Notes: generated by a model from the sequence alone, not told the origin. Shown: positions 8,078-32,000, counted from the stretch's first letter. The stretch: DNA of 32,000 nt from an uncultured Actinomycetes bacterium (GCA_963843975.1 CAWJMG010000001.1:1080001-1112000); one strand, 5' to 3'. Made by a program: numbers and translations.

Positions 8078-8102
8078 GCAGCCGCCGGTGCGGCAGTCCT
8101 CG

Positions 8103-8571: not shown

Positions 8572-8847
8572 TCAGACGACGTCGTCGCGGACCTCGGTCG
8601 TGACGACGTTGCGCGAGGTCTGCGGCGTCCCATCGGGCGCGACGGAGCCGTAGGGCACGCCAGTCTCGATGACCTGGCGACGTCGCCGCGGGGCGAAGAC
8701 GAGAAGAGTCATCAGGAGGCCGAGGACTCCGGCGCCCATCAGGATCCAGCCGACCACGTGGATGTCCACGCCGGCGACCTTCGCGTCCACCGCGAACGCC
8801 AGGATCGCGCCGACCGCCATCAGGAAGATGCTTGCTCCGATACCCAT
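8572..8847 (-). CDS. Small two-TM membrane protein (DUF6458-like, tentative)
   Basis: 91 aa. MGIGASIFLMAVGAILAFAV ... VVGWILMGAGVLGLLMTLLVF. GAGAGGGG RBS. Confidence 0.6.
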   Translation of the reverse strand: MGIGASIFLMAVGAILAFAVDAKVAGVDIHVVGWILMGAGVLGLLMTLLVFAPRRRRQVIETGVPYGSVAPDGTPQTSRNVVTTEVRDDVV

Positions 8848-8898
8848 GTCAGACCCCTCTCGGACGTGCTCCGGCGCGCTCGCGCCGAGGCACAGGTC

Positions 8899-12452: not shown

Positions 12453-13480
12453 GCCGCACCATGCGCGCCTTCGTGGTCACCGCTCCGGGGGAGACGGGCG
12501 TGCAGGAGGTCGAGGCGCCCGTGGCCGCGCCGGGCGAGGTGGTGGTCGACGTCGAGCGCGTCGGCGTCTGCGGCACAGACGTCGAGTTCTTCACCGGCGA
12601 GATGCAGTACCTGCACGACGGGTTCGCGCACTTCCCGCTCCGCCTCGGCCACGAGTGGTGCGGCACGGTCGAATCCGTGGGCGAGGGCGTGGACGAGCGC
12701 TGGATCGGACGCCGCGTCACCGGCGACACGATGCTCGGGTGCGGTCGCTGCTACCGCTGCCTGCGCGGCGACCAGCACGTGTGCGAGCACCGAAGCGAGG
12801 TCGGCATCCGCAACGGCCGCGCCGGTGCACTGGCCGATCAGCTCGCCGTGCCGGTCACCTCGCTTCACGGCCTGCCCGACGCCGTCGACGTCGTCGCGGG
12901 TGCGCTCGTGGAGCCGGGCGGCAACGCGCTGCGGGCCGCCCAGGGCGCGCGCCTCTCGCCAGGAGACCGCGTGCTGATCCTCGGCCCGGGGACGATCGGC
13001 CTGCTCGTCGCGATGTTCGCGCGGGCTGACGGCGCCGAGGTGCACCTCATGGGCCACTCCGCGCGCACCCTTGACTTCGCCCGCTCGATCGGCTTCGAGA
13101 ACGCCTGGACCGAGGCCGAGATCCCCTCTCTCCCATGGGATGCTGTCATCGATGCGAGCAACGCCGCGTACCTGCCTGCCAAGGCGCTCGAGCTGGTCGA
13201 GCCGAGCAAGCGGGTCGTCTACATCGGCCTCGCCGGAAGCCACAGCCATGTCGACAGCCGCACCATCGCGCTGAAGGACGTCACCGCTGTCGGCGTTCTG
13301 TCGGCGTCCCCCGGCCTCGCCGGGACGATCGAGGCGTACGCGTCGGGCGCCGTCGACCCGCGGCCCATCGTGGCTGCGACCGTCGGGCTCGACGGCGTGG
13401 CCGACGTGCTGGCCGGGCACCGTCCGGACGGCGCGGGCGCTGGACCGAAGATCCACGTGGACCCGAGGAAGCGAGACTGA
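12449..13480 (+). CDS. Zinc-binding medium-chain alcohol/polyol dehydrogenase
   Basis: 343 aa. GVCGTDVEF, GHEWCGTV, structural-zinc loop GCGRCYRCLRGDQHVC, and GPGTIGLL Rossmann motif. ATGA overlap with the FAH stop. Confidence 0.85.
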   Translation: MSRTMRAFVVTAPGETGVQEVEAPVAAPGEVVVDVERVGVCGTDVEFFTGEMQYLHDGFAHFPLRLGHEWCGTVESVGEGVDERWIGRRVTGDTMLGCGRCYRCLRGDQHVCEHRSEVGIRNGRAGALADQLAVPVTSLHGLPDAVDVVAGALVEPGGNALRAAQGARLSPGDRVLILGPGTIGLLVAMFARADGAEVHLMGHSARTLDFARSIGFENAWTEAEIPSLPWDAVIDASNAAYLPAKALELVEPSKRVVYIGLAGSHSHVDSRTIALKDVTAVGVLSASPGLAGTIEAYASGAVDPRPIVAATVGLDGVADVLAGHRPDGAGAGPKIHVDPRKRD

Positions 13481-13481
13481 C

Positions 13482-14223
13482 ATGGCCGAGTTCGACGGGA
13501 TCGCCGCGATCGTGACCGGTGGTGCGAGCGGGCTCGGCGCCGCGACGGCTGCGCTGCTCGTCGAGCGCGGCGCCAAGGTGGCCGTGCTCGACCTCAGCAC
13601 CGAGACGGCGCCGCCCGGCACGGTGCCGATCACCTGCGACGTGTCGGACTCCGCCTCGGTCGAGGCCGCCGTGCACGCCGCGGCCTTCGAGCCTCGGCGG
13701 CATCGATGTCGTCGTCAACAACGCCGGCATCGGCGCGGGCGGCGACGTCGCGGCGAACGGCGACGACGAGTGGCACAAGGTGCTCGACGTGAACGTGGTG
13801 GGCATGGCGCGCGTCGCGCGGGCCGCGCTGCCGTACCTGCGCGAGTCGAAGCACCCCGCGATCGTGAACACGAGCTCGGTCGTCGCCGTGGTCGGCGTCA
13901 AGAACCGCGCGCTCTACAGCGCCAGCAAGGGCGCGGTCCTCGCGATGACCCTCGCGATGGCCGCAGACCATGTGGGAGAAGGCATCCGCGTCAACGCCGT
14001 CGCGCCCGGCACCGCCGACACCCCCTGGGTCGCACGGCTGCTCGACGAGGCCGACGACCCGGCCGCCATGGGCGAGGCCCTCCGACGACGTCAGCCGATG
14101 GGACGCCTCGTGAGCCCCGACGAGGTCGCGCACGCGATCGCCTACCTAGCGAGCCCCCTGTCGGCCAGCACCACCGGGACGGTCCTGGGAGTAGACGGCG
14201 GCATGGCCGGACTCCGGGTCTGA
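13482..14223 (+). pseudogene. SDR family oxidoreductase, apparent +1 frameshift near 13689-13695
   Basis: TGGASGLG N-terminus in frame 0. GGIDVVVNNAGI ... YSASKGAV ... PGTADTP in frame 1. Removing one C from GAGCCTC gives AAAFELGGIDVVVNNAG. Confidence 0.8.
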
Positions 14224-14245
14224 CCGCGGATACCGCGAGCTCCTA

Positions 14246-14274
14246 CCGATCTCGAGCGCTGTCAGCGAGATCGG
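14246..14274 (+). terminator. Hairpin after the SDR gene (9-bp stem, 11-nt loop)
   Basis: CCGATCTCG (14246-14254) pairs with CGAGATCGG (14266-14274). Confidence 0.4.
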
Positions 14275-14288
14275 CGATCCCTTGCTTC

Positions 14289-14317
14289 TTGACAATGGGA
14301 AGATATCTTCCCATTCT
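14289..14317 (+). promoter_or_regulatory. Predicted promoter (TTGACA, 17 nt, CATTCT) with an embedded perfect 22-bp palindrome AATGGGAAGATATCTTCCCATT; candidate PadR auto-operator
   Basis: TTGACA at 14289-14294. The palindrome at 14294-14315 fills the spacer. The -10-like hexamer is at 14312-14317. The ATG at 14324 is 7 nt after the -10, which implies a leaderless mRNA. Confidence 0.6.
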
Positions 14318-14323
14318 TTCCCC

Positions 14324-14674
14324 ATGGCCCGCCGACGCTTCGACCAGCTGCTGCCGCTCGAAGTGGCGATCCTCGAGGCGGGGCTCGCCCTGACCCGCGA
14401 CGGCAGCGAGTTCCACGGCTTCGCGCTCGCGGCGGCGATGGCGGATGTCGAGGGATCTCGACGGCTCACAGCCCACGGCACCCTCTACAAGGCGCTCGGC
14501 CGCATGGCCGAGCGCGGCCTCCTCACGGCCCGCTGGGAGGAGTCGTCGATCGCCGACGCCGAGGGGCGGCCCCGACGTCGTCTCTACCGCGTCACCGGCG
14601 CGGGCGAGGCGGACCTCGTACGGAGCAGCCGGCCCACCGCGCCCGTCGCAGCGGCCCGGGTGGCGACGACATGA
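14324..14674 (+). CDS. PadR family transcriptional regulator
   Basis: 116 aa from MARRRF. Winged-helix block HGFALAAAMADV...AHGTLYKALGRMAERGLLTARWEE...RRRLYRVTGAGE. Confidence 0.8.
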   Translation: MARRRFDQLLPLEVAILEAGLALTRDGSEFHGFALAAAMADVEGSRRLTAHGTLYKALGRMAERGLLTARWEESSIADAEGRPRRRLYRVTGAGEADLVRSSRPTAPVAAARVATT

Positions 14675-17682: not shown

Positions 17683-18348
17683 ATGACGTGGATCCTGGTC
17701 ATCGACGACGAGCCGGGGATCGTCAGGTTCGTGAGTCGCGCGCTGATCGCCGCCGGCTACGACGTCGAGACAGCAAGCAACGGTGTCGACGGGCTGCGCC
17801 GCGCCTCCGAGCAGCGGTTCGACCTGATCACCCTCGACCTGCGCCTTCCGGGGCTGGGCGGGATGGCCGTGCTGACGGCGCTGATGGAGCAGGACCCGGG
17901 CAACCGCGTCCTCGTGCTCTCGGCGGCCGAGGGCGTGCAGGAGCGGGTCCGGTGCCTCGAGAGCGGTGCCGCAGACTTCCTGGCCAAGCCGTTCGCGGTG
18001 GCCGAGCTGCTCGCACGCATCAAGTCGCGGCTCCCTGCACCGACCGGCCAGCCCGCCGCCCCGACCATCGAGACGGGTCGCGTGCAGCTCGACCCACACC
18101 GGCGGACGGTGACCGCCGACGGGCGGGTCATCGAGCTGTCGGCGCGGGAGTACCGCGTCCTCGTCCACCTCATGACCCGGGCCGACCGGGCGTGCTCACG
18201 CCAGGAGCTGCTGTCCGAGGTCTGGGGGCTCGCCTTCGACCCAGGCAGCAACGTCGTGGACGTATGCGTCGCACGCCTGCGCGCGAAGCTTGCCGGGGCT
18301 CACATCCAGACGGTGCGCAATGTCGGTTATGCCTTCGTCTCGGCGTGA
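17683..18348 (+). CDS. OmpR/PhoB-family two-component response regulator
   Basis: 221 aa. Receiver domain (VIDDEPG, LITLDLRLPG, AKPF) and winged-helix output (LSAREYRVLVHLM...VRNVGYAF). Confidence 0.9.
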   Translation: MTWILVIDDEPGIVRFVSRALIAAGYDVETASNGVDGLRRASEQRFDLITLDLRLPGLGGMAVLTALMEQDPGNRVLVLSAAEGVQERVRCLESGAADFLAKPFAVAELLARIKSRLPAPTGQPAAPTIETGRVQLDPHRRTVTADGRVIELSAREYRVLVHLMTRADRACSRQELLSEVWGLAFDPGSNVVDVCVARLRAKLAGAHIQTVRNVGYAFVSA

Positions 18349-19399
18349 CGACGGCCTCCTGGCCGCGTTCCTCGTCTTCGCCGGGATCTGCCTGCTGGTG
18401 ATGGCCTTCGTGCCCGGTCAGGTCACGGTGCCCTACCACCTTCTCTTCCTCAGCCTCACCCTCGTCTACGGCTACGCGCTCTGGCCGGCGCGCCGCACGG
18501 TCGCTCTCCTCCTGCTGGTCACCGTGGCGACCGGATTCATGCTCACGCGGCTGGCGATGACCGGTGAGATCGAGTGGGAGGAGTGCACGGAGATCGTGCT
18601 CATGCCCGCGATCTTCCTGGGCATGCTCTGGCACTCGCAGCGGCAGCTGCAGGCGCGCGAGCGCATGGCGACGGTCGCCATCGAGCAACGCGCCCTCCTC
18701 GATCACGAACGACAGTTCATCCAGGAGACCTCGCACGCGATCCGTACGCCTGTGACCGTGGCGCGCGGGCACCTCGACCTCGCCCTCGAGCACGTCAGCG
18801 ATCCGCAGGCCCGCGGCGACCTCGAGGTCGTCGCCCTGCAGCTCGAGCGCATCGCCAAGCTCGCCGGGACCCTGATGGCGTTGAAGGAGCTGGGCAACCC
18901 GAACCAGCACGACCGACACACGGTAGACGTCGCGGACGTCGTGGCCGCCGCCGCGCGCCGCTGGTCCAAGACGGCCGACCGCGACTGGCAGATCCTCGCG
19001 CCGGCCGGTGCCGTCGCCCTGGTGGACGAGCACACGCTCGAGCTGGCGCTGGACGCACTGCTGGAGAACGCCGTCCGCTTCACCGAGCCGGGCGACGTCG
19101 TCCGGGTGAGCGTCGCGTGGCTCAACGGCCGGGTCGAGGTGGAGGTCGCCGACTCCGGCCCTGGCGTGCCTCAGGCCGACCGCATCCATGTCTTCGACCG
19201 CTTCTGGCACGGGGAGTACCAGGCCGGTGGTCAGGGTTCAGGTCTCGGCCTGGCTCTCGTGCAGGCTGTCGCAGAGGCGCACGGCGGCACCGCCCGCGTC
19301 GCGGACTCCGACCTCGGCGGGGCGTCGTTCACCCTCGAGCTGCCCACTCCGGTGCTCCCGCGCGTCACCGTCGACAGCGAGGCACCCGGGATCGTCTAG
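18329..19399 (+). CDS. Sensor histidine kinase, membrane-embedded type with no sizeable extracytoplasmic domain
   Basis: H-box ETSHAIRTPVT, LLENAVRFT, DSGPGVP, GSGLGLALV. About four N-terminal TM helices. The start is uncertain (in-frame candidates at 18290, 18320 and 18329), and it overlaps the regulator's 3' end. Confidence 0.85.
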   Translation: MPSSRRDDGLLAAFLVFAGICLLVMAFVPGQVTVPYHLLFLSLTLVYGYALWPARRTVALLLLVTVATGFMLTRLAMTGEIEWEECTEIVLMPAIFLGMLWHSQRQLQARERMATVAIEQRALLDHERQFIQETSHAIRTPVTVARGHLDLALEHVSDPQARGDLEVVALQLERIAKLAGTLMALKELGNPNQHDRHTVDVADVVAAAARRWSKTADRDWQILAPAGAVALVDEHTLELALDALLENAVRFTEPGDVVRVSVAWLNGRVEVEVADSGPGVPQADRIHVFDRFWHGEYQAGGQGSGLGLALVQAVAEAHGGTARVADSDLGGASFTLELPTPVLPRVTVDSEAPGIV

Positions 19400-19611: not shown

Positions 19612-22600
19612 ATGTTCTCGACCCGGACCAACGCCCGCCGCACCGCGGCGGCGCCGATCGTCGTGCTCACGCTCCTGCTGGGGCTGACGCCGGCACTCGT
19701 CGTCGGCGCGAGCGCCCCCGCGGCCGCCGCCACCTTCGGCGACCTGCGCGTCAAGGTCGTGACCGCACGGGCGATGGGCTCGTTGGCCGCGGGAGCAGCC
19801 ATCGACCCGGCCGCCACCTACACCTGGCTCATCACGGCTGACGATGCCGGCAACCCCGACCAGCAGCTCTCCGCGTGCCAGGCCTCCAACCCCGGCTACC
19901 CCGAGAGCTGCGCGTGGCCGTCGATCCGTCAGACCCCGGGCGCTGTGCCGATCGTCGCGCAGGGCACGCGGGCGGACCTCAACGCCACCAAGGCCCTGGC
20001 CGGCCTCCCCGCAGGCAAGTACCTCATCTCGGTGCTCGCGGACGGATACACGCTGGGCGGCAAGCACTTCACGATGCCGCTGTCCGCGCCCGTCCTCGAC
20101 GTCCCTGTGCAGCCGAACCCCGTCCCCCTGGGCACCATGCGCATCCGCGTCTTCCACGACAACGCGCCCGTCGACGGCACCTACGAGGCAGGTTCGGAGA
20201 CCGGTCAGCAGGGCAACCCCACCAACAACCTCTCGGGGTTCGAGGCCCACCTCAGCGACGTCCTGGGCGAGGTCACGACCGACTGGTACGGCAACCCGCT
20301 GTGCACCAACTACCGGCACGACGGCAACGGCCGCGTCGTGTTCGACGCCGGGTCGCCCGTCATCAACGCGACCAACCCCGGTGGTCGCTGCCTGAGCAAC
20401 GCCGTAGGCGACATCGTCGTCCCCAACCTCGGCAGCAACCGCTACGGCGTGACCCTGAGCAAGCCGGCGAACAAGGCCTCGTGGGTGCAGACCACGACGC
20501 TGGAGGGCGCGCACGACCACGACGTGTGGGTCATCAACGGCGACAACGGCCTGGACTCCGAGCTCGTCGTCGGCGGCGAGCCGGTGCCGTGGGTGCAGTT
20601 CGGCTACATCGAGCAGCGCCCCATGCGCAGCTCCACCGCAGTCGCGCACGTGAAGGGCCAGATCCTGGAGGGCCTCGCCTACGTCGGCGGCAACGGCGGC
20701 GTCACCATGCCCGGTGGGACCGGCACGGCCGGCGGCAAGGAGGGGCGGCCGATCGACCGCCCGTGGATCTCCCTGTCCGATCTCGGCAACGGCGACCAGA
20801 TGGTCTACACCGGCCGCGGCAACACGGACGGCACCTTCGACATCGCCCGCGTGCCGGACGGCACGTACCAGCTCACCGCGTGGGACGACGCACAGGACTA
20901 CATCCTCTTCAGCTTCAACGTAACCGTCGACAACCAGGTCAGCGTGGACACCGGCAAGAACTACCTGTCGGGCTGGATGACGCGGCTGTACGGCACCGTC
21001 TTCATCGACACCAACGAGAACGGCGTCCGGGACCCCGGCGAGCAGGGCGTGCCCGGCACCGCCGTGACCCTCCGCGAGCGCGACAACTCGCTCATGGACC
21101 AGTTCACCAACACCGCGACGACCGACAGCAAGGGCAACTACTCGATCGCCGAGGCGTACCCGCTCACGCGCTGGCTGATCCTCGAGCACTTCAACACGCG
21201 CTACTACGGCACCGGCGTCACGGTGCAGGGCGAGAACGACCCCACGCCCACGACGTTCCGCGGCGCGGCGGTCGACATCAACGTCCTGCCGGTCCTCGGC
21301 CTCGGCGGCCGCATCGACTGGGGGGTCAAGCCCTACGCCCCCGGCACCAACGGCGGGATCGTCGGCACCGTCTCGTACGACACCACGCGCAACGAGCTCG
21401 ACCCGGCGTACGCCGTGGCCGAGGACTACCAGCCGGGCGTGCCTGGGATCGGCGTGAACCTGTACGGGATCGAGAAGGACACGCGGGCCACCATCACCGA
21501 CCCCAACGACCCCTCGGCGACCATCCCCAACCCGGACTTCGGGATGCCGATTCTCGACAGCCGCGGGCTCCCCGTCCGCGGGCCGAAGCTCGCCGACACC
21601 TACACCTCCGAGACGTGGGAGGCCCCGAAGGGCTGCACCGCTCGGCAGTGGGACGGGAGCGAGCGCACGGGTCTCGGCTTCATCCCGGCATCCGGCCTCG
21701 CCGCGAACAAGACCTGCGTCGAGTCGCCGGCCATGGGCGTCCAGGTCCGTCCCGCCGACACGACCCAGGACGCCTGGGGCCAGACGGTGAACGGCAACTA
21801 CGGCTTCGCCGACTCCGACCTCAACCTCTACCTCCCCGGCGACCCGGACAACCCCGGCTACCCCGAGGGCTACGCGGCCGCCCACCCCGACGAGTGCGCG
21901 AACATCGCGACCCCCGAGGTCACGTGCGCACCGGGCGCCAACGACCTCCCGCTCTACGCCGATCTCGCGGCGTACGGCTACGACCCCCAGGCGCTCACGC
22001 CTGACGACTACGTGGTCGCGGTCGACATCCCCGACAACCCCGTCGGCGGCGGGAAGATGTACCAGGTCACCCGCGAGCAGGACGTCAACGTCTTCGACGG
22101 CGACTCGTACCTCCCCTCGGAGAACTTCCCCGTCACGAACGACCCGACGACCAACCCGCCGGTCATCAACGGTGGCAACACCGACGCTCCGACCGAGCCC
22201 CCGACGCAGGGCGGCGGGCTGGGCCTGTCGCCGTGCATCGGTGCGGACCAGACGGTCGACGTCACCAACCCGAACTTCCTCGACAACGGCGGCAGCCCGT
22301 TCCAGGGCCAGGCACGCCCGCTGTGCGACGAGAAGCTCGTGACGCTGCGCGGCCAGTCCGCGGTTGCGCCGACGTTCACGATGTTCACGCAGACGCCGCT
22401 GCCCACGCACTTCTGGGGTCTCACGATCAACGACCTCGGCCTCACGTGGGACAAGCGGAGCATCCAGTACGGCGAGGCGCAGGGCATCCCCGGCGTCCCC
22501 ATGGGCATCTACGACTTCAGCGGTCGTCTGATCGACACCGTGAAGACGGACTTCAACGGCTTCTACGAGGCCATCGAGCCCTCGACGTCGTCGTACAACT

Positions 22601-24999
22601 GCCCGACCCCGGCAGGTCCCTGCGCCGGCATGTACCGGTTCGTCGGCAACGACCCCGGTCAGCCAGGAGCACCGAACGCCAACTACAACCCGCGCTACCG
22701 CACGATCGCCACGAACTTCCAGGCGTACCCGGGCCTGTTCACGGTGACGGACACCGCACCGACGCAGACCGGTGCCGTGGCGATCACCCCGGGCACCACC
22801 ACGCCCGTCCCCGTCAACTGCGCAGTGAGCGCGACGACACCCGAGGTCTTCGCGGTCGACAAGGTCGTGGTCAAGGGCAGTGACGGCACTGCAGCCCGGA
22901 CGGTCACGGTCAACGGCCAGGGATTCGGTACGTTCACGTCCGGCTCGCGGGTCGAGCTCGTCCGCACCGACGGCACGGTGATCAACGCGACGTCGGTCTC
23001 GAGCTGGACCGGTACGCAGATCAAGTTCGTCGTCCCGAACACCGTCTCGATCATCCTGCCCCTCTACGGACCGCTCCAGCTGCGCATCCGCAACGCGAGC
23101 GGCAACTACTCGAGCAGCGCCGTCACGATCCACGAGACCCGCGGCCTCCTCTACGACCCTGCGGTCCGCGAGGTCGGCCCGGGCAAGACGTTCGCCACGA
23201 TCCAGGCCGCCATCGCCAACGGGGTCCCGGCGGCGGACGTCGCTCGGGAGTACGCTTTCGGACGGCTGATCGTCGTCTACCCGGGCACGCCGACCGCGTT
23301 CAACCCTGACGGTGCGTACCAGCAGAACGTCGTCATGAATCGCAGGGTCAAGCTGCAGGGCTTCGGTCCTGGCGGTATCCAGGCCGACGGGACGCACGTG
23401 CGCGGCACCGTGATCAGCGGCGCGGCCTATGACGCGGACGGCGCCTCGGGTGCGGCCTGGGCCGCCCTCGCAGCGGGTCGCCACGCGGGCCCGGCAGGTG
23501 TGCCGGACGGTGCCGTGGTGACGGTCCTCCCGACCACGACCGAGCAGTTCCGGACGAACCTCCCGCTGCAGAGCGCCCTCGGCAACGCCGCGATCGACGG
23601 CTTCCGGATCACGGGCGGCTACCAGTCCGACGTCGGCGTCGCGCCGAACGTCATCGGCGGGAACCGCACGGGGTACGGCGCACCAGGCGCGACGGTCTCG
23701 CAGGGCGGCGGAATCTACGTGCACGCCTCCGCGACCAACCTCCGCCTGTCCAACAACCTGGTCATCGGCAACGGCGGCTCGTACGCCGGCGGTATCCGAG
23801 TCGGCACGCCGTACGCCACCGTGAGCGACAACCAGAACGACAACGTCGTGATCGCCTACAACCGCATCCGCGACAACGGCGGCACGAACCTCGCCGGCGG
23901 CATCGGGATCTTCACCGGCACCCAGAACTACGTCGTCGACCACAACGACATCTGCGGCAACTTCTCGCAGGAGTACGGCGCGGGCATCAGCCAGTACGGG
24001 TTCAGCCCCGGTGGCCGGATCACCGCGAACCGCGTGTGGTTCAACGAGTCGTACGACGAGGGAGCCGGCATCTTCCTTGCCGGCGAGCTCCCCGCCAACC
24101 CGGACGACGCGTCGGCCGGCACGGGCGAGGAGACGATCTCCGGCAACACGATCGTCGCCAACAGCGCCAACGACGACGGCGGCGGCATCCGGCTCCTGCA
24201 GGTGGGGAACTACCCCACCAGCGGGCCCGGCAGCCGTCCGGCGGCCCAGCGCATCGGCTACCTGATCCGCATCGACAACAACATCGTGGCGGACAACGTG
24301 TCGACCCACGAGGGCGGTGGCATCGCCCTCGACGACGCGGCCAACGTCCAGATCGTGTCCAACACGGTGGCACGCAACATCACGACGGCCACCGCCGTGA
24401 CGAGCGACGGCACTCCCGCCCCGGCGGGCCTGTCGACCGGCGCCAACAGCACCCAGCTGCAGGCGACCCTGCCGGTCGGGGCGTCGACCTGGAGCAACCC
24501 GGTGCTGCTCGGCAACATCTTCTGGCAGAACGCTGCCGGCACCTGGGACGGCATGAACGTCAACGGGATCGGCATCGGCGGGGCCGCCGACCTGAACTTC
24601 TGGGACATGGGGTCCACGGACGGCTCCGGTCCGCTGACACCCAGGTTCGGGGTCATGACGAACCTCCACGCAGGAGTCACCGTCGACGCGACGAACGTCC
24701 TGTCGCCTGGCAACACTGTCGGCTTCGTGAACCCGTACAGCGTCTCGGTGGACGTGTCCACGCTGCGGGCGTTCCCGGGATTCCGGCAGTCGGTGATCGT
24801 CGTGAACAACGTTGCTCCCGACGTCCAGGGCAGCTACCGCATCGCGGCGGGGAGCACCGCGATCAACGTCGGCCGTGCCGCAGCGCTCTACGGGCCGCTG
24901 ACGGTGACCGCTCCGAGCACCGACATCGACGGGACCGTGCGCTACGCGGGCACCGCCACCACCACCACGCAGATCGATGCAGGAGCTGACGAGCGATGA
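19612..24999 (+). CDS. Giant secreted multidomain protein (1795 aa): signal peptide, SdrD-B/Cna-B-like and carboxypeptidase-regulatory-like beta-sandwich domains, IPT/TIG-like domain, C-terminal right-handed parallel beta-helix (PbH1 repeats)
   Basis: N-terminal signal RRTAAAPIVVLTLLLGLTPALVVGASAPAAA. GTVFIDTNENGVRDPGEQGVPGTAVTL...DSKGNY at about 20990-21150. TIG-like VVVKGSDG...VTVNGQGFG...IKFVVPN at about 22860-23040. GGGIYV/SNNLVIGNGG/GGIRV/NRIRDNGG/GGIGIF/GAGI/GGGIRL/GGGIAL repeats at about 23560-24400. Terminal STAINVG...TDIDGTVR...IDAGADE motif. Confidence 0.8.
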   Translation: MFSTRTNARRTAAAPIVVLTLLLGLTPALVVGASAPAAAATFGDLRVKVVTARAMGSLAAGAAIDPAATYTWLITADDAGNPDQQLSACQASNPGYPESCAWPSIRQTPGAVPIVAQGTRADLNATKALAGLPAGKYLISVLADGYTLGGKHFTMPLSAPVLDVPVQPNPVPLGTMRIRVFHDNAPVDGTYEAGSETGQQGNPTNNLSGFEAHLSDVLGEVTTDWYGNPLCTNYRHDGNGRVVFDAGSPVINATNPGGRCLSNAVGDIVVPNLGSNRYGVTLSKPANKASWVQTTTLEGAHDHDVWVINGDNGLDSELVVGGEPVPWVQFGYIEQRPMRSSTAVAHVKGQILEGLAYVGGNGGVTMPGGTGTAGGKEGRPIDRPWISLSDLGNGDQMVYTGRGNTDGTFDIARVPDGTYQLTAWDDAQDYILFSFNVTVDNQVSVDTGKNYLSGWMTRLYGTVFIDTNENGVRDPGEQGVPGTAVTLRERDNSLMDQFTNTATTDSKGNYSIAEAYPLTRWLILEHFNTRYYGTGVTVQGENDPTPTTFRGAAVDINVLPVLGLGGRIDWGVKPYAPGTNGGIVGTVSYDTTRNELDPAYAVAEDYQPGVPGIGVNLYGIEKDTRATITDPNDPSATIPNPDFGMPILDSRGLPVRGPKLADTYTSETWEAPKGCTARQWDGSERTGLGFIPASGLAANKTCVESPAMGVQVRPADTTQDAWGQTVNGNYGFADSDLNLYLPGDPDNPGYPEGYAAAHPDECANIATPEVTCAPGANDLPLYADLAAYGYDPQALTPDDYVVAVDIPDNPVGGGKMYQVTREQDVNVFDGDSYLPSENFPVTNDPTTNPPVINGGNTDAPTEPPTQGGGLGLSPCIGADQTVDVTNPNFLDNGGSPFQGQARPLCDEKLVTLRGQSAVAPTFTMFTQTPLPTHFWGLTINDLGLTWDKRSIQYGEAQGIPGVPMGIYDFSGRLIDTVKTDFNGFYEAIEPSTSSYNCPTPAGPCAGMYRFVGNDPGQPGAPNANYNPRYRTIATNFQAYPGLFTVTDTAPTQTGAVAITPGTTTPVPVNCAVSATTPEVFAVDKVVVKGSDGTAARTVTVNGQGFGTFTSGSRVELVRTDGTVINATSVSSWTGTQIKFVVPNTVSIILPLYGPLQLRIRNASGNYSSSAVTIHETRGLLYDPAVREVGPGKTFATIQAAIANGVPAADVAREYAFGRLIVVYPGTPTAFNPDGAYQQNVVMNRRVKLQGFGPGGIQADGTHVRGTVISGAAYDADGASGAAWAALAAGRHAGPAGVPDGAVVTVLPTTTEQFRTNLPLQSALGNAAIDGFRITGGYQSDVGVAPNVIGGNRTGYGAPGATVSQGGGIYVHASATNLRLSNNLVIGNGGSYAGGIRVGTPYATVSDNQNDNVVIAYNRIRDNGGTNLAGGIGIFTGTQNYVVDHNDICGNFSQEYGAGISQYGFSPGGRITANRVWFNESYDEGAGIFLAGELPANPDDASAGTGEETISGNTIVANSANDDGGGIRLLQVGNYPTSGPGSRPAAQRIGYLIRIDNNIVADNVSTHEGGGIALDDAANVQIVSNTVARNITTATAVTSDGTPAPAGLSTGANSTQLQATLPVGASTWSNPVLLGNIFWQNAAGTWDGMNVNGIGIGGAADLNFWDMGSTDGSGPLTPRFGVMTNLHAGVTVDATNVLSPGNTVGFVNPYSVSVDVSTLRAFPGFRQSVIVVNNVAPDVQGSYRIAAGSTAINVGRAAALYGPLTVTAPSTDIDGTVRYAGTATTTTQIDAGADER

Positions 25000-26327
25000 G
25001 CGACATGCAGAACGACTCGGACGGCTCGTCGTCGCCGCTGCTCGGTCGTCGGGCGCTGCTGCGCGGCGGTGCGGTGCTCGCCGCAGGCGCGGCGACGGGA
25101 GGCTGGCTCCTCAGCCGTGGTGCGGCCGACGCCGCGATCGTGCGCAACGCGGTCCCGGCCGTCTACCGCGCGCCCGGCCCGCGCGAGCAGCTGCTGCACC
25201 TTGCGGCGACCGACGGATGGGTGTCCATGCCTGCCGACGCACCGCCGGTCGGGGCCTTCTGGCCGGACACCCTCGCGCCGACGGGCTACAACGTCTACGC
25301 ATTCGGGTTCCGCGACGTCACCGGCATGACCCCCACCCAGGTCCTGGCTCAGAAGGAGCGGGCGCAGATCTCTGCTCCCATCCTCGGGTTCGACCAGTAC
25401 GTGAAGGCGAAGGACAACGCCGTCCGCGTGACGCTGTCGAACCTGGGTCTCGCCGTGCGCCCCGACCTGGTGGACGGCCACACGATCCACTGGCACGGCT
25501 TCACCAACGCCATCCCGCTGTTCGACGGCGTCCCCGAGCTGTCGATCTCCGTGCCGATCGGACGCGACTTCACGTACTACTACCGCCCGCACCTGCCCGG
25601 CACGTACATGTACCACTGCCACTTCGAAGACGTGGAGCACGTGCAGATGGGCATGACCGGAGTCCTGTACGTCCGGCCGGAGCGCAACACCATCAGCCAG
25701 AAGTTCGCGTACGACCACGACGCGACGGCGTACGAGCGGGAGTTCACCTTTATGCTCACCGAGCTCTGGGCCGAGGGTCACTACCGGGACGCGCACATCC
25801 AGACGTCGGACTGGACCGACTACAAGCCGAGCTTCTGGCTCATGAACGGCCGCGCCTACCCCGACACGCTCAAGCCCAACATCAACCCCATGGACTCGAG
25901 GCCGGACACCAACCCGGCGCTGCAGTCGGACTCCGGCGCATCGCTGCGCTACAACCCGATCTCGTCGCTCGTGCGGTGCAACGCCGGCGACCGCGTGCTG
26001 CTGCGCATCGCGAACCTCGGGTACCAGCACCACGCGATGACCCTCGACGGCATCCCGATGAAGGTGGTCGCCAAGGACGCGAGCCCCCTGATCGGAAACG
26101 GTCCGGATCTCACCTACGAGACGAACACCGTCGAGGTCGGCCCCGGTGAGAGCAGGGATGTGATCTTCACGGCTCCTGCAGTCGCGTCCACCACGACCTT
26201 CCGCCTGTACGACCGCAACTACGCCTACCTGAGCAACGCGGGCGCTGCGGGGTACGGCGGTCAGATGACCGAGGTGCGCGTGTCCCCCACAGGGACCTTC
26301 GGCCCCCAGACCGGCCCGAACCAGTGA
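24996..26327 (+). CDS. Two-domain multicopper-oxidase-like protein 1 (Tat signal; domain 1 carries a complete T1 site plus two HxH pairs; domain 2 is ligand-poor)
   Basis: 443 aa. Twin-arginine motif GRRALLRGG. HTIHWHG at 25479-25499. HCHFEDVEHVQMGM at 25614-25655. Second cupredoxin domain has only QHHAMTLDG. ATGA overlap with the giant gene stop. Confidence 0.8.
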   Translation: MSDMQNDSDGSSSPLLGRRALLRGGAVLAAGAATGGWLLSRGAADAAIVRNAVPAVYRAPGPREQLLHLAATDGWVSMPADAPPVGAFWPDTLAPTGYNVYAFGFRDVTGMTPTQVLAQKERAQISAPILGFDQYVKAKDNAVRVTLSNLGLAVRPDLVDGHTIHWHGFTNAIPLFDGVPELSISVPIGRDFTYYYRPHLPGTYMYHCHFEDVEHVQMGMTGVLYVRPERNTISQKFAYDHDATAYEREFTFMLTELWAEGHYRDAHIQTSDWTDYKPSFWLMNGRAYPDTLKPNINPMDSRPDTNPALQSDSGASLRYNPISSLVRCNAGDRVLLRIANLGYQHHAMTLDGIPMKVVAKDASPLIGNGPDLTYETNTVEVGPGESRDVIFTAPAVASTTTFRLYDRNYAYLSNAGAAGYGGQMTEVRVSPTGTFGPQTGPNQ

Positions 26328-26341
26328 GGAGGGCGGCAACC

Positions 26342-27680
26342 ATGCGAGCACTGTCCTGGAGCCCGGCCCGCACCGCGGCGCTCGCCGTGGTCACGATGAC
26401 CACTGCCCTGCTCGTCTCGGCCGGCCTCGCCGGCCAGGCTCAGGCCGCGTCCGACGAGGGCCTCGTGTGCGAGACGAGCGCGACCAACTCGTTCAACCTC
26501 ACCGCGACCAGCGGCTACATCCTCACGCCCGACGGCAACTCCATCTTCATGTGGGGCTATGCCGGTCCGAGCGGGACCTTCCAGCTTCCCCGGGCCGACG
26601 CTCTGCGTCGCCGAGGGCGCGACCGTGACGGTCACGCTGAAGAACCAGCTGCGCGAGCCGGTCTCGATCGTGTTCCCCGGTCTCACCGGTGTGAACGCGG
26701 ACGGGCAGCCCGCGCAGCCGACGTTCGACACGGCGGGGAAGCTCACCTCGCTGACGAAGGCGGCCGCCGCATCAGGCGGGACCGTGACCTACTCCTTCGT
26801 GGCCTCGCGACCGGGCACGTTCCTGTACGAGTCCGGCACCGACGTCGCCAAGCAGGTCCAGATGGGCCTGTACGGAGCCCTCGTCGTCCGCCCGGCGATC
26901 AACGGCACGATCATCGACGGCCAGGCGTACGACGACCCGGCGTCGAAGTTCGACCAGGGCCACGAGTACCTGCACCTGCTGTCGGAGATCGACCCGGCGT
27001 TCCACCTCGCGGTCGAGCGCAACCGGGCCTTCGACCTCGTCAACCTCCGCAGCCGCTACTTCCTCATCAACGGCCGCAGCATGCCGGACACCATCGCGCC
27101 GAACGGCGCTGCCTGGCTGCCGGCGCAGCCGTACGGATCGCTGATCCACATCCTTCCCAAGCCGGCCAACGCCGGCCCCGCGTATCGACCAGCGCTCATC
27201 CGCTACCTCAACGCCGGCACCGGGACGTACCCGTTCCACCCCCACGGCAACGACCAGCGCGTGGTGGGCAAGGACGGCTACGGGCTCATCGCCACCGGGA
27301 GCGGCGACTCCAGCTACGAGAAGTTCCTCATCGACATCGGCCCGGGCCAGACCGTCGACACCACGCTCGAGTGGAGCAACGAGGAGAACTACGCCCCGGA
27401 CACCGACCCGAACGACGGCGTCAACACCGACATCCCTGTCGACCTTCCAGCTCTCAACGACCAGATCATCACGCCGGACACGTGGTTCAGCGAGAGCCCC
27501 TACCTCGGGTTCACCGCCGACCTGCCGCCGAACGTGACGTCCAACAACCAGTGCGGCGAGTACTACCACGTGGCCCACAGCCACGCGCTGCAGCAGGCAA
27601 CGAACTACGGCGCGACCTTCGGCGGGATGATGACCCTCATCCGCATCGACCCGCCGGCCGGCTGCCCGGTGACGCCATGA
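26342..27680 (+). pseudogene. Two-domain multicopper-oxidase-like protein 2 (Sec signal; domain 1 ligand-less; domain 2 keeps HPH and HSH pairs but has lost the T1 His and Cys), apparent +1 frameshift near 26582-26591
   Basis: GAGGAGGG RBS and ATG at 26342. Signal ...AGLAGQAQA. The N-terminal 83 codons are in frame 2 (…GTFQLP) and the remainder in frame 0 (GPTLCVAEGATVTVTL…). YPFHPHG (His-Pro-His-Gly at 27237-27248) and HVAHSH at 27567-27584. Confidence 0.8.
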
Positions 27681-30408
27681 GCAACGGGACCGAGAGCGGG
27701 ACGACCATGAACTCACGACAGCGCTCGAGCCGTGCCCTGGCCATCGTGGCCGGCGGATCGCTCCTCCTCGCAGGGGTTGCCGCGGTGCCGCCGATCGCCG
27801 CCGCCCAGGCCGGTGCTGCGGCGCCGGCCCGGGTCGCGGCGGCAGTGCACCCCGCAGCAGTGCTCGTGCCGAGCACGGGAACTGCCTGCGTGGCCGGCAC
27901 CGGCACGCGGGTGTGCGACCTGTGGGCGCGCACCGGCGTGAACGCGGGGCCGGGTGCGCTCACCGGCGTCTCGTTCTGGAGCTACACCAGTGCAGCTGCC
28001 GACCCCGTCGGCACCACCGGGCCGACGCTCGTCGTGCAGCAGGGGGAGAGCGTCACGCTCCGGCTGCACAACCGGCTCGGCACGGGGCGCATCACGTCGC
28101 TCGCGATGCCGCAGGTCGACAGCTTCACCGAGGACACCACGGGCGTCGCGGACCTCGCCGACAAGGACTACACGTTCACGGCCACGCGTCCGGGCACGTA
28201 CCTCTACGAGGCCGGCGGCACGACCGACGGCGCGCGCCAGACCGCGCTGGGCATGGTCGGCGCCCTGGTCGTCGTGCCCACCGCCGCGCCGACCACCTAC
28301 ACGGACGAGGCCGTCGCTCTGCTCACCGACGTCGACCCCGGGCTGCACGCCAACCCGGCGACGTACGACATGCGCAACTACAACCCCCGCGTCCACCTCG
28401 TCAACGGCGCGACGTTCCCGTCGACGACGAACCTCCCCGTCACGGCAGGCAGCAACGCGTTGCTGCGCGTCGTGAACGGCGGAGTCGTCCAGCACGCGAT
28501 CGGCATCCTCGGGACGAACCAGAGGGTCGTCGCCGTCTCCTCCCGCACCCTCAGCCACCCGTACGGCGTGGCGGCCGAGAACGTCGCCGCCGGTGACACG
28601 CTCGACCTGCTCGTGTCGGTCCCGGCCGCCACGACCGCCGGGCTGAAGTACGCCGTGTACGACGCCTCCACGAGGCTCGACAGCAGCACGGGGGCCGCGA
28701 CCGGCATCGTGCCGTTCGGCGGAGCGCTGACGTTCCTCGACACCGGCTCGGCCGTCGCGACGAGCCCGGGGCCGAGCATCACCGGCCTCGTCGTCACCCC
28801 GGCCCGGTCCAACGGCTCGGCGTCGCTCACCTTCACGGGCACCGCCGGGATCACCGGCGACCCCGCGGTCACCGGCCTCGAGTACGTCGTGGACAACGGC
28901 GCGATCGCGACCGGATCGGGCACGGCGGTCGCGGGGGGCACCGGTCCCGTGACCGGCACCTTCTCGGCCACCGGTCTCGCCACCGGGTCGCACACGCTGC
29001 TGCTCCGCGCGAACAGCGCCGCGGGCTGGGGACCGTTCGCGGCCGCCACGTTCGTGGTCGACCGCACCGGCCCCGTCGCCTCGGGCGTCGGACTCAGCAG
29101 GCCGTCGGTCGGGAAGCTCGACGGTCTCGACCTCCGTCACGGTCAGCGCGAGCGCCTCGGACAGCACCACGGGCGGCAGCAACGTGACCGCGGCGACGTA
29201 CTCGATCGACGGAGGGCCGACTCAGCCGCTGACGCTCGCCCCCGGGCCGGCGGTCACGGTCTCGCTGAGCGGGACGATCGCGAAGTCCGTCGTCGACGGG
29301 CTCCTCGAGGGCAAGCACACGATCTCCGTGGTCGCGTCCGACCAGTTCGCCAACGTGGGCACTGCGGCGACCGCGGTGCTCCTCGTGGACCGCACCACCC
29401 CGACCGTCTCGGGTGTCACGGTGAGCCCGTCGCCGAACAACGGCGCCCAGGGCACACCTGCCGACCCGACCTCGGTCGAGGTCCGGGCGTCGTTCGCCGA
29501 CGCCTCCGCGGGCACAGCGCCCGGCGGCCCTGCTGCCAGCGGGGTCGTGTCCGGCGAGGGCTTCCTCGGCGGGACCACCGCGGGCACTCCGGGCACCGGG
29601 TTCCTGCTGACGCCCTACCCGACGGGCAGCCCCACCCAGCTGCTCGGCACCTTCCCGGTCTCGGAGCTCACGAGGTTCCCCGACGGACCGCTGACGGTGT
29701 GGGTGCGGGCCAAGGACGCCGCAGGCAACTGGGGCACCGCGGTCGCAGGCACGCTGGTCATCCAGCGCGACGCGATCTTCGCCAGCGCGTTCGACAGCCC
29801 GACGACGCTCGTCCCACCGTGGTCGAGCCAGGTTACGTCGAGCGGCCTCACCGTCGCGAACGCCGTGTCCGGCACGTCGCGCCAGCTGGTCGTCACCCGC
29901 TCGGGGTCGTTCTCGAACAACTCTCGCGGCTACGTCGTGACGACGGCACCGTCGGCCGAGACGAAGTACAAGGCGGCGTTCCAGTTCACGCCGGGCACCC
30001 TCACCACGGGCTCGTCGACCAACAACGCCCGCATCCTCACCATCTTCGCGGCAAGGACGGGGGCGGGGACGAACGCGCTCACCGTGCAGTACCGGTCCTT
30101 CGGTACGTCGCGTCAGGTGCGGATGCAGGTGGCCACGGCGACCGGGGCGAAGCTCGACCGCCTGGACGACGCTCGCCACGGGCAACGGCCCGGTCACCCT
30201 GCACCTCACGTGGGTGTCGGCGGCCTCGGCCACGGCGACGTTCACGATCGGCAGCACCGCGGTGCCGTCGCTCACCGGGCTGAACACGAGCGGCAACACC
30301 ATCGAGACGGCCTGGCTCGGCGTCTCTGCGTCGTCCGGCAGCGGGACGGTCTCGACCGGATCGCTCGCCTTCGACAACTTCGACTCGCGGCGCACCACCG
30401 CCCCGTGA
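27677..30408 (+). pseudogene. Cupredoxin-pair protein 3: signal peptide, two ligand-less MCO-like cupredoxin domains, Ig-like repeats and a C-terminal beta-sandwich-like domain; two apparent +1 frameshifts (about 29113 and about 30149)
   Basis: ATGA overlap with the protein 2 stop. GPTLVVQQGESVTLRLHN, PGTYLYEAGG...ALGMVGALVVVP and VNGATFP...LLRVVNGG are paralogous to proteins 1 and 2. VDRTGPVASGV / VDRTTPTVSGV Ig-like repeat starts. The reading frame moves 2 to 0 to 1, ending at TGA 30406-30408. Confidence 0.75.
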
Positions 30409-30425
30409 CCGACAAGGAGAACCCG

Positions 30426-30902
30426 ATGGCCACCACCGAAGGTCGCGGCACCAACCCGTTCCGGCGGCACGCCCGCGCGCTTGCCGCCGCGACAGGGCTC
30501 GCGCTCTGCCTCGGCATCGCCGGCGCCGTAGCTGCCGAGGCGGGCAAGCGCCCGACCCGGCCGTCCATGCCGGTCAGCAGCGAGGTCGAGACGAACGCGG
30601 GGGTCCGCGTCATCCGGGCCAGCCTCGCAGCCGACGGCGGACTGCTCGACGTGCGGTACGTCGTCCTCAACGCGCCGCGGGCGCAGAAGTGGATGGCGGA
30701 CACCTCCCAGCCTCCGGCGCTGTACGACCAGAGGAACAAGGCCACGATCGCCCGCGTCGCGCCTATGCGTGACGCGCACCAGCAGCGGCCGGGTCAGACC
30801 TACTACCTCGTCTACCAGAACGTTCGGAACACGATCCACCGCGGAGACCGGATCGACCTGACCGTGGCCGGCGTGACCCTGCACGACATCCCGGTGGAGT
30901 GA
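30426..30902 (+). CDS. Small secreted or membrane-anchored hypothetical protein (158 aa)
   Basis: AAGGAGA RBS. N-terminal FRRHARALAAATGLALCLGIAGAVAA hydrophobic segment. Family not recognised. Confidence 0.6.
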   Translation: MATTEGRGTNPFRRHARALAAATGLALCLGIAGAVAAEAGKRPTRPSMPVSSEVETNAGVRVIRASLAADGGLLDVRYVVLNAPRAQKWMADTSQPPALYDQRNKATIARVAPMRDAHQQRPGQTYYLVYQNVRNTIHRGDRIDLTVAGVTLHDIPVE

Positions 30903-30910
30903 GAGCGACC

Positions 30911-32000
30911 ATGTCCGCACGTCGCGCCTGGGCGCGCCTCAGCCTCGCGGCGGCTGCCGTCGTCGTGGGTCTGACGCTGTCAGCCGCTCCCGCGTCGGCC
31001 CACGCCGTCCTCATCGGGAGCAACCCGGCGGACGGGTCGAGCCTCGACTCTGCTCCCCAGGAGCTCGTCCTCACCTTCGACGAGGCGGTCACGGTCGAGA
31101 GCACGGTCGTGCACCTGCTCGACGAGTCCGGCCGGACGCTCGAGGTCGGCGCCATCGCCGCCGGCGACGGTTCCGGCGAGGAGGAGGCCGAGGCGATCAG
31201 CGCCCAGCTGCCGCAGCTTCCCGAACGGCCGCTATCTCATCCGGTGGCAGACGATCACGAGCGACGACTTCCACCCGGTCGACGGGTCGCTGACGTTCGG
31301 GGTCGGAACCGGCGTCGGGGTCACGGCTGTCGGCGGCACCAGTGAGCGACCCGTGGGCGATGTCCTCGAGACGCTGACCCGGGGGACGGTCGTGGCCGGC
31401 TACATGCTCGCTGTCGGTGCCCTGGCACTCCTTCTGCTCGCGCACCCGCTGCTCGCCGCGCGTCCCATCGCGCTGCGCTTCGTGGTGCGGGCCTGCATGG
31501 TCGGCGTCGTCACGTCGATCGGAGGCCTCGCCCTGCTCGCGGCGCTGCTGACCCTCGACACCGGTGCGGCTCCGCCGACGTCGTTCCTCCTCTACTGGGG
31601 CGCTGCGGCGGCCGGGCTGCTCGTCCTCGGCATCAACGCGAGCGCCATCGACCGGCTGCACGGCACCCGCGCGCCCCGTCCGGCAGCAGCCGCGACGGCA
31701 GTGCTCGCGGCGCTCGCAACCGCTTGGGGCGTCGGCCATCTCGGGCACGGCGGTGCTGCCGCAGGCTCGGCGCTGTCCACCGTGCACGTCGCCGCGACCG
31801 CCGTGTGGGCGGGCGGCGTCGCCCTGCTCGTCCCCCTGGCCTTCTTCGCCGGGCGCGACGGTCAGAGCGGCTGGGCCCGCGACGTCATCAAGCGGTTCGG
31901 GCGCCTCGCGGTGCCGGCACTCGCGCTGTCGATCATGAGCGGTGCGCTGCTCGCCCGCGGACTCGTCCCCACCTGGGGTGGCCTCACCGAGACCGCGTAC
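30911..32000 (+). pseudogene. CopC-CopD fusion copper transport/resistance protein (YcnJ-like), apparent +1 frameshift near 31214-31223; 3' end runs off the window
   Basis: Signal ...SAAPASA followed by HAVLIGSNPADGSSLDSAPQELVLTFDEAV (CopC N-terminal His motif). After the shift, NGRYLIRWQTITSDDFHPVDGSLTFGV (CopC end), then multiple TM helices with VHVAATAVWAGGV (CopD-like). The frame stays open to position 32000. Confidence 0.8.

Follow-up and report, generated by a model that had tools for sequence, protein, structure and literature searches.

We analysed a stretch of 32,000 nucleotides from an uncultured Actinomycetes bacterium (GCA_963843975.1, CAWJMG010000001.1:1080001-1112000), here called the window, whose + strand carries three adjacent genes for two-domain cupredoxin proteins of the multicopper oxidase (MCO) type. 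Their products, P1, P2 and P3, together retain the ligands of one type 1 (T1) copper site and the eight histidines of one trinuclear copper cluster, with the T1 site and four of the histidines lying in P1 and the other four in P2. The partition recurs in distant bacterial lineages, and the three proteins are probably subunits of a single enzyme. The genes, their intact or degenerate ligand motifs and the single extra bases that interrupt some of the reading frames are as follows; L086 is a Logan contig closely related to the window.

24996..26327, + strand: P1, two-domain cupredoxin protein of 443 aa, matched by Pfam; best PDB matches 3G5W and 2ZWN; twin-arginine translocation (Tat)-type signal GRRALLRG
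25479..25499, + strand: P1 domain 1 motif H162-T-I-H165-W-H167-G, combining the T1 His with an HxH pair; opposite HTIHWHG of 3G5W in the alignment
25614..25655, + strand: P1 domain 1 motif H207-C208-H209-FEDVE-H215-VQMG-M220, combining the HCH pair with the T1 Cys, His and Met; opposite YHCHVNVNEHVTMRGM of 3G5W in the alignment
26028..26051, + strand: P1 domain 2 degenerate site H346-A-M-T-L-D351-G, in the column that reads HxxHxH in type-C MCOs
26208-26228, + strand: second degenerate site of P1 domain 2, Y405-D-R407, opposite HDH of 3G5W
26342..27680, + strand: P2, two-domain cupredoxin protein of 445 aa when the extra base at 26586 is left out; Pfam Cu-oxidase_3 1e-14; Sec-type signal
26586, + strand: one extra T within AGC[T]TC, which breaks the P2 frame
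27228..27248, + strand: P2 domain 2 motif Y302-P-F-H305-P-H307-G, an HxH pair with Tyr in place of the ancestral T1 His
27567..27632, + strand: P2 domain 2 motif H418-S419-H420 ... G-G-M-M, the second HxH pair, with Ser at the Cys position of T1-bearing domains
27677..30408, + strand: P3, about 909 aa when the extra bases at 29114 and 30150 are left out; Sec-type signal; intact at 909 aa in L086
29114, 30150 and 31218, + strand: single extra bases (A and A in P3, T in copCD), located by alignment to L086

P1 and P2 scored above the Pfam gathering cut-offs (P1: Cu-oxidase_2 9e-14, Cu-oxidase_3 4e-12 and Cu-oxidase 6.5e-06; P2: Cu-oxidase_3 as listed), while P3 fell just below them, with borderline matches to Cu-oxidase_3 and Cu-oxidase at 4e-4 (20.8 and 20.9 bits against a cut-off of 21). 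This was the outcome of the profile search (PF00394, PF07731 and PF07732) put forward together with the original prediction, which had proposed from the DNA alone that the three genes are paralogous and share out one copper centre. No NCBIfam model exists for P1, P2 or P3. The paralogy is borne out by BLASTP (P1 to P2, 2e-21; P1 to P3, 5e-12; P2 to P3, 7e-19) and by hhalign, which gave probabilities of 99.7-100% among the three and tied P3 to P1 and P2 at 1e-26 to 1e-46, the strongest value being that for P3 against P2 (1e-46). The homology covers both domains. Two blocks of motifs that had been aligned by eye were reproduced by profile-profile alignment, with PGTYMYHCHFEDVEHVQMGMTGVLYVRP, PGTFLYESGTDVAKQVQMGLYGALVVRP and PGTYLYEAGGTTDGARQTALGMVGALVVVP in register in the first and LLRIANLGYQHHAMTLDG, LIRYLNAGTGTYPFHPHG and LLRVVNGGVVQHAIGILG in register in the second.

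The closest solved structures for both P1 and P2 are type-C two-domain MCOs, namely the blue copper oxidase of Nitrosomonas europaea (3G5W) and the metagenomic mgLAC (2ZWN), to which both domains align in HMMER and which are also among the best matches by fold. Monomer models from AlphaFold2 (AF2) matched 2ZWN, 9CCK and 3G5W best in the case of P2, and the copper nitrite reductase NirK and 3G5W in the case of P1, with template modelling (TM) scores of ~0.5-0.7 normalised to the target for the matches to two-domain MCOs and NirK. The region of the P2 model that contains HSH is of low confidence and uninterpretable with the 30-sequence alignment used. P1, P2 and P3 are thus of the type-C two-domain kind of MCO, P3 by way of its homology to the other two.

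Type-C chains have two cupredoxin domains, with a T1 site in domain 1 (HxxHxH and HCH-x7-H-x4/5-M), two HxH motifs in domain 2 and a trinuclear cluster formed between chains. In domain 1 of P1, HTIHWHG falls on the HTIHWHG of 3G5W and YHCHFEDVEHVQM-GM falls on YHCHVNVNEHVTMRGM of the same protein (HMMER), which gives P1 a T1 site composed of H162, C208, H215 and M220 and four cluster histidines, H165, H167, H207 and H209. Domain 2 of P1 has HAMTLDG and YDR opposite HAIHTHG and HDH of 3G5W. In P2 the situation is reversed. Its domain 1 has no histidine in the region matching HTIHWHG and reads YESGTD in place of YHCHxx, whereas in domain 2 YPFHPHG lies on HAIHTHG of 3G5W and HAMHSHG of 2ZWN, and HSH-x12-GGMMT has the spacing of HDH-x12-GGIMT in domain 2 of 3G5W. 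The cluster histidines of P2 are H305, H307, H418 and H420, and the T1 His and Cys of this domain are replaced by Tyr and Ser. No HxH was found at the equivalent positions of P1 domain 2, P2 domain 1 or either domain of P3, either in the profile alignment or in the ortholog columns, and a T1 site is absent from P2 and P3.

The His, Cys and Met residues singled out in the original prediction, that is, a full T1 site and four cluster histidines in P1 domain 1 and only HPH and HSH in P2 domain 2, thus sit at the canonical ligand positions of solved type-C two-domain MCOs, and the tally claimed there, one T1 site and eight trinuclear-cluster histidines with four of the six domains ligand-free, was obtained again from the alignments and ortholog columns. 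A type-C chain carries eight cluster histidines by itself; here P1 has four, P2 four and P3 none.

To see how far this holds in Actinobacteria we used a scan of species-representative genomes, 419 of which encode a relative of P1, and examined 80 loci, which span Micromonospora, Actinoplanes, Amycolatopsis, Nocardioides, Terrabacter, Kribbella, Kineosporia, Nakamurella, Acidothermaceae and one metagenome-assembled genome (MAG) of Chloroflexi. Ligand columns were counted in 82 P1, 77 P2 and 71 P3 sequences from different genomes. All P1 ligand columns are invariant (H162, H165 and H167 in 82/82) except H207, which is present in 81/82. In P2, H305, H307, H418, S419 and H420 are found in 77/77 and Y302 in 75/77. 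The 71 P3 orthologues have neither a ligand nor an HxH at the ligand columns. A full ligand set, which would have spoken against a shared centre, occurs in none of the orthologues, and the partition is constant in ~70-80 actinobacterial operons.

The residues that replace lost ligands are themselves kept. In domain 2 of P1, H346 occurs in 82/82 sequences and D351, Y405 and R407 in 81/82 each, with T349 and D406 also conserved. Conserved replacements in P2 are S114/F117/G119 and S170/G171/D173/K176/Q177, and those in P3 are Y177/A179/T182/R187/Q188 and H273. The surfaces of the degenerate sites are still under constraint. P2 has four Cys that are invariant in a 30-sequence alignment (A1) and probably form disulfides; the only conserved Cys of P1 orthologues is the T1 ligand. 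The export signals of P1 and P2 also differ, an RRx-hydrophobic pattern being present in the first 50 residues of 73/75 P1 homologues that start with Met and in 22/112 for P2. The Sec-type signal of P3 was judged by eye from two sequences.

The three genes lie in an unbroken run of + strand genes that reaches from a response regulator to a CopC-CopD fusion:

17683..18345, + strand: OmpR-family response regulator (Pfam Response_reg 8e-27, Trans_reg_C 9e-22), directly upstream of the operon
18290..19399, + strand: sensor histidine kinase, start codon uncertain (Pfam HisKA 8e-08, HATPase_c 3e-25)
19612..24999, + strand: the giant protein (1795 aa), secreted; Pfam matches to Ig-like/SdrD_B and CarboxypepD_reg domains, and a right-handed beta-helix at the C-terminus
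30426..30902, + strand: the small protein (158 aa), conserved, with a domain of ~110 aa and, at its N-terminus, a lipoprotein signal or membrane anchor
30899..32000, + strand: CopC-CopD fusion (copper uptake/handling), running past the window end and frame-broken at 31218

Start and stop codons overlap by 4 nt (ATGA or GTGA) between the giant gene and P1, between P2 and P3 and between the small-protein gene and CopC. The first two of these are ATGA, the giant stop and the P1 start sharing these bases in the former. The original prediction had all three cupredoxin genes translationally coupled. The overlap is there for P2 and P3, but between P1 and P2 it would be a GTGA at 26324, and the P2 start is probably the ATG at 26342, as in a homologue 97% identical to P2 (P0121). 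P3 consists of two ligand-free cupredoxin domains (~aa 60-360), Ig-like (Big_13) domains and a C-terminal beta-sandwich region. The 158-aa protein was matched by no Pfam or NCBIfam family, and the L086 orthologue of the CopC-CopD fusion (595 aa) matches CopC at 6e-20 and CopD at 2e-12 (Pfam).

The gene order is as stable as the ligand columns. A survey of synteny had been suggested for the three genes; in every one of the 80 loci with enough DNA the giant, P1, P2, P3 and small-protein genes are kept, and CopC/CopD follows wherever the contig is long enough. The small protein lies downstream of P3 in nearly all loci that reach past P3, and the regulator/kinase pair flanks orthologous operons too.

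To look beyond Actinobacteria, 1.84 billion cluster representatives were searched exhaustively, which returned 245 clusters of the P1 family at E < 1e-30. Among the best 149 of these 245 representatives, 94 have HCH and no HxH downstream of it, and none has the canonical pair of domain-2 HxH motifs. The operon is widespread, with matches in 419 species-level genomes for its actinobacterial form and thousands of homologues from Proteobacteria, Nitrospira and Desulfuromonas. Loci of several lineages were inspected. Those of Methylocaldum (L087) and Desulfuromonas (L088) contain a regulator/kinase pair, the giant gene, P1, P2, P3, the small protein, a subtilisin-like S8 protease and SCO1/SenC, with a cytochrome c in Methylocaldum; the Gram-negative operons have SCO1/SenC and a cytochrome c of ~500-550 aa instead of CopC-CopD (L087 13985-18562; L088 14001-19218). 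In an uncultured lineage (L085) the giant protein has a gene of its own, followed by P1, P2, a P3 in minimal form (334 aa, no extensions) and the small protein. In another (L083), a giant-P1 fusion is followed by a P2-like gene with LHPFHHHG and WHSH...GGMMT, a ligand-free P3-like gene and a small-protein homologue, with SCO1/SenC and cytochrome c in divergent orientation (7401-9652). The chromid of Cupriavidus metallidurans CH34 (NC_007974.2, about 1.334-1.358 Mb) encodes P1, P2, a stop-to-stop open reading frame (ORF) of ~2700 aa and the small protein.

A motif census in Methylocaldum and CH34 gave HxxHxHG and HCH as the sole motifs of P1, two HxH as those of P2 and none in P3, and the same partition of P2 and P3 was seen in the two uncultured lineages. 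P3 keeps both cupredoxin domains in every lineage examined. Its C-terminal extension varies: L087 and L088 have a cadherin-like one, that of the window is Ig-like, and L085 has none. Gram-negative P1s have Sec-type signals. Homologues of the small protein lie 3' of P3 in L083 (20659-21105), L085 (12699-13193), L087 and CH34 (L089 22230-22727); they share the motifs DGGL..RYvVLD..KA and GQ.YY..Y.N, with a Met/His pair conserved only in Actinobacteria. This protein of ~150 aa accompanies P3 in all lineages, and its possible roles include those of anchor, assembly factor and chaperone.

Many of the matches to P1 are proteins of 1000-2800 aa in which the P1 module is C-terminal. In some Gram-negative lineages the giant protein is joined N-terminally to P1, as in P0292 (2457 aa; L083 10001-17374) and P0375 (2816 aa; L084 3460-11910), and in CH34 the ~2700-aa ORF joins the giant to P3 at the C-terminus (L089 14103-22226). 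A giant protein covalently linked to P1 in one set of lineages and to P3 in CH34 is independent genomic evidence placing P1 and P3 in one assembly. No fusion of P1 to P2 or of P2 to P3 was present among the 150 best representatives or the 80 loci. The long matches are either giant-P1 fusions or frameshift artefacts, P0287 and P0315 being examples of the latter. As a separate observation, P0375 has a PAP2 / vanadium-chloroperoxidase-like domain (Pfam PAP2, VCPO_2nd) between its beta-helix part and the MCO module.

Gene clusters of this type have been reported before. In Sideroxydans lithotrophicus ES-1, Slit_1812-1818 was described as a cluster of 'three tandem MCO genes' (PMC5566968; PMC11429942) whose expression is higher with solid magnetite than with Fe(II)-citrate, the three cupredoxin proteins being co-expressed (Keffer et al., PMC11429942). 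Two of these proteins were assigned 'canonical' MCO motifs; the third, which is larger, has none of these motifs but contains domains resembling adhesins and polysaccharide lyases; similar clusters were listed in Ralstonia, Paraburkholderia, Anaeromyxobacter and Steroidobacteraceae (PMC11429942). The three cupredoxin proteins are adjacent and extracellular, and the cluster also includes small hypothetical proteins, SCO1/SenC and a cytochrome (PMC5566968; PMC11429942). Compared by its published description, it has the gene content of the window, L083, L087, L088 and CH34, except that the actinobacterial version has a separate giant gene and has CopC-CopD instead of SCO1/cytochrome c. Cytochrome c and SCO1/SenC are likewise the neighbours of OmpB (Geobacter) and MofA (Leptothrix), large secreted MCOs found beside a MofC-like cytochrome c and SCO1/SenC, to which the three tandem MCOs are not homologous by the criteria of He et al. 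(PMC5566968). No homologue named MofA or OmpB was among the best 120 matches of our third homology search.

What do the three proteins form? In two-domain MCOs each trinuclear cluster is shared by two adjacent chains, one contributing its domain 1 and the other its domain 2 (9CCK; Lawton et al. 2009 for 3G5W, as cited in PMC11761707). P1 has one half of a cluster and P2 the complementary half, and the simplest reading is that P1 domain 1 and P2 domain 2 pair to form the only O2-reducing site. By analogy with this rule, the quaternary structure would be a ring or a heterodimer. The original prediction had favoured a heteromer, and this reading is supported. We think it probable that P1, P2 and P3 are subunits of one extracytoplasmic hetero-oligomeric MCO derived from a homotrimeric type-C two-domain MCO, and we give about an even chance to a strict 1:1:1 ring of six domains.

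In such an enzyme, domain 1 of P1 would hold the sole T1 copper (H162, C208, H215, M220) together with the cluster histidines H165, H167, H207 and H209, and domain 2 of P2 would give the remaining H305, H307, H418 and H420, so that the single trinuclear cluster would exist only at the interface of the two. Electrons would pass from the T1 site of P1 through the diad of C208 and its His to the cluster. The copper-free P3 would most likely close a pseudo-threefold ring with the domain order P2-P1-P3; a threefold ring needs a third two-domain unit, and P3 is a paralogue, is under purifying selection and always adjoins P2. At the cell surface, the giant adhesin/beta-helix protein may tether the ring together with the small membrane protein, with copper supplied by CopC-CopD in Actinobacteria and by SCO1/SenC with cytochrome c in Gram-negatives. 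As P1 has a Tat signal and P2 a Sec signal in Actinobacteria, assembly and metallation would follow export. A cluster put together outside the cytoplasm would be unusual, but the copper-handling genes next door make it plausible. Metals or mineral-bound Fe(II) are possible substrates, a reasonable guess by analogy whose one basis is the magnetite report on the Slit cluster.

The ring can be set against two known arrangements. Type-C MCOs have eight cluster histidines per chain and form homotrimers with three T1 sites and three clusters, whereas here there are at most four per chain and the three paralogues together could form one T1 site and one cluster; the count, taken from the alignments, argues against the three clusters of a homotrimer. 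Ceruloplasmin represents a type in which six domains form a pseudo-threefold ring with only one trinuclear cluster, the sites at the two remaining interfaces being degenerate. In ceruloplasmin one polypeptide contains all six domains, of which 2, 4 and 6 have T1 sites, whereas the window encodes three separate chains with one T1 site, in a domain-1-type position, and the six domains are spread over three genes with their own signal peptides. One cluster per six domains fits the count of eight histidines, and the six-domain ring itself would be the corresponding structure. Gene triplication and differential site loss would then have come before any fusion. Taken together, that is, an obligate 1:1:1 ring with one T1 site and one cluster, intermediate between homotrimeric two-domain and six-domain MCOs and serving as the catalytic head of a widespread surface machine that oxidises metal or mineral-bound Fe(II), we judge the proposal to be evenly balanced between holding and failing.

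Several points weigh against it. The complex is a prediction from sequence, and the AF2 monomers, at modest confidence (predicted local distance difference test, pLDDT, of 69 for P2 and 59 for P1), bear out the fold class only. Inter-protein mutual information in 70 paired operons (effective number of sequences, Neff, ~27) was dominated by phylogenetic hubs, and covariation was not enriched at predicted over non-predicted interfaces when motif neighbourhoods were compared in these 70 operons. One pair of positions, P1-345 (26028-26030) and P3-181 (28217-28219), reached the 99.8th percentile; N/H is the commonest state (57 genomes), and H/G (5 genomes) and Q/A or Q/L (3 genomes) are the others. 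The genomes without His at P3-181 (G, A or L) all have His or Gln for Asn at P1-345, in three lineages including the clade of the window, which could be a compensatory contact across the interface of P3 domain 1 and P1 domain 2 or a clade effect; we discounted it as evidence of contact because P1-345 covaries equally with P2-301 and a clade effect is possible. Moreover, in Actinobacteria P1 has a Tat signal and P2 (and P3) Sec-type signals, so the presumed partners are exported by different routes. The place of P3 in the ring would follow from parsimony and the fusions. Finally, that the Slit cluster is homologous to the CH34-type operon is something we infer from the published description and the CH34 architecture.

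Among other explanations, the one that survives best, although we consider it unlikely, is that only P1 and P2 are catalytic, either as a heterodimer or as a ring with a second P1 or P2, and that P3 is a separate copper-free adhesin or anchor sharing their ancestry. The ligands are indeed confined to P1 and P2. P3 is also the most divergent of the three across loci (~34-61% identity against 53-76% for P1 and P2), has the highest ratio of non-synonymous to synonymous substitution (dN/dS, 0.16), and carries C-terminal extensions that vary by lineage. Yet it keeps both cupredoxin domains wherever we looked, and in one lineage consists of nothing else within its minimal 334 aa. It is always encoded beside P2, with the P2 stop and P3 start overlapping in the window, and the fusion of the giant to either P1 or P3 puts both on the same partner. 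A third two-domain unit is, again, what a threefold ring requires.

Separate action of the three proteins is clearly less probable and in our view would be surprising. Here P1 would be a homo-oligomer with a T1 site and a non-canonical partial site, NirK-like or binuclear, while P2 and P3 would be pseudo-enzymes with a structural, chaperone or copper-binding role. The invariant H346, D351, Y405 and R407 of P1 domain 2 could form such a different site, the P1 model resembles copper nitrite reductases, whose catalytic copper has three His ligands only, and the Tat and Sec signals of P1 and P2 in Actinobacteria would fit proteins that do not act together. However, the HxxHxH and HCH patterns of P1 are of the MCO type and identical to those of 3G5W, and H346 occupies the ancestral T1-His column, which is kept in all paralogues (H346, Y302/H, H273) and is not specific to P1. 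The four histidines of P2 are invariant across phyla though P2 has no redox centre of its own, which is hard to explain unless they bind a cluster, and the exact complementarity of the half-sites would be a coincidence.

If the heteromeric enzyme with divided ligands is real, eight cluster histidines spread over two gene products together with a copper-free third paralogue would be a new quaternary solution for MCOs, and direct evidence for the long-proposed path from a two-domain trimer to a six-domain protein with one cluster. It would also mean that expressing 'the MCO' by itself yields an inactive protein, which is relevant to work on the homologous cluster in the iron oxidiser Sideroxydans and in Cupriavidus metallidurans, a model for metal resistance. 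To our knowledge, every characterised MCO has its full ligand set in one gene product. MnxG carries all the cluster ligands, and MnxE and MnxF are small unrelated accessory proteins; the catalytic cluster of the Mnx Mn(II) oxidase is not known to be divided among paralogous MCO chains. In other respects Mnx (MnxG with MnxE and MnxF) is comparable, being likewise a multi-subunit bacterial MCO that acts on metal at the cell or spore surface (PMC5622069). In the literature on heteromeric and heterotrimeric MCOs nothing equivalent was found, though subscription journals were thinly covered and absence is not proof; the nearest items were an alpha-alpha-alpha' form of Nmar_1354, in which the difference lies in a pendant domain, the Mnx complex and the small subunits of fungal laccases. 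The suggestion that the architecture had not been described therefore needs to be divided, since the type of gene cluster was already reported (PMC5566968, PMC11429942), while split ligands and a heteromer are absent from those papers. The complementary partition, its deep conservation and the heteromer that it implies appear to be new; the cluster itself is known, though uncharacterised.

P1 is an intact ORF of 443 aa. P2 and P3 had been read as continuous genes in the original prediction, which passed silently over +1 frame breaks at 26586, 29114 and 30150. We compared the window with L086, which is 93.7% identical over 25607-32000 and in which P2 (445 aa), P3 (909 aa), the small protein (158 aa) and CopCD (595 aa) are all intact. 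In this 6.4-kb alignment there are only four indels (26586, 29114, 30150 and 31218), each an extra base in the window, each interrupting a gene and each with the same surroundings, GA[A]GCT or, as the complement, AGC[T]TC. When the four bases are removed no stop codon is left and all ORFs are open, and dN/dS between the window and L086 is 0.04 for P1, 0.07 for P2, 0.16 for P3, 0.06 for the small protein and 0.07 for CopCD, indicating purifying selection on all three cupredoxin genes including the ligand-free P3. Of ~70 other genomes, nearly all encode P2 and P3 in one ORF each; the exceptions, few in number, are contigs of uncultured MAGs in which the genes are fragmented. The intact P0121 reads GTFQLPGPTLC over the 26586 break. 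The extra bases are missing in a 94% identical relative and selection is strongly purifying; P2 and P3 are therefore not pseudogenes, and the extra bases would be context-specific insertion artefacts of sequencing or assembly, or at most very recent lesions.

A decaying locus, in which the frameshifts are real, P2 and P3 are pseudogenes and the ligand losses reflect relaxed selection on redundant paralogues, is suggested by the crowding of three breaks in P2/P3 and one in copCD within 4.7 kb, when the giant gene and P1 have no break over 6.7 kb, but it is hardly credible in the face of the single shared context, the open frames and low dN/dS, the intact genes elsewhere and a ligand partition older than the split between the lineages of Actinobacteria and Proteobacteria.

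GAAGCT occurs 21 times in the window against 7.1 expected, and 95 GAGCT sites are unaffected; the artefact is possibly tied to a methylation motif. Programmed +1 frameshifting at the shared GAAGCT was considered and rejected, since the 93.7% identical relative lacks the extra bases, the 95 GAGCT sites are unaffected, and GAAGCT sites occur in intact genes without a frame shift. Further frame errors may be present in the upstream part of the window (11591-14390). In this region a 629-aa ORF combines a partial FAA_hydrolase domain with a complete zinc alcohol dehydrogenase, and the ORF next to it matched a short-chain dehydrogenase profile over the first ~70 positions only.

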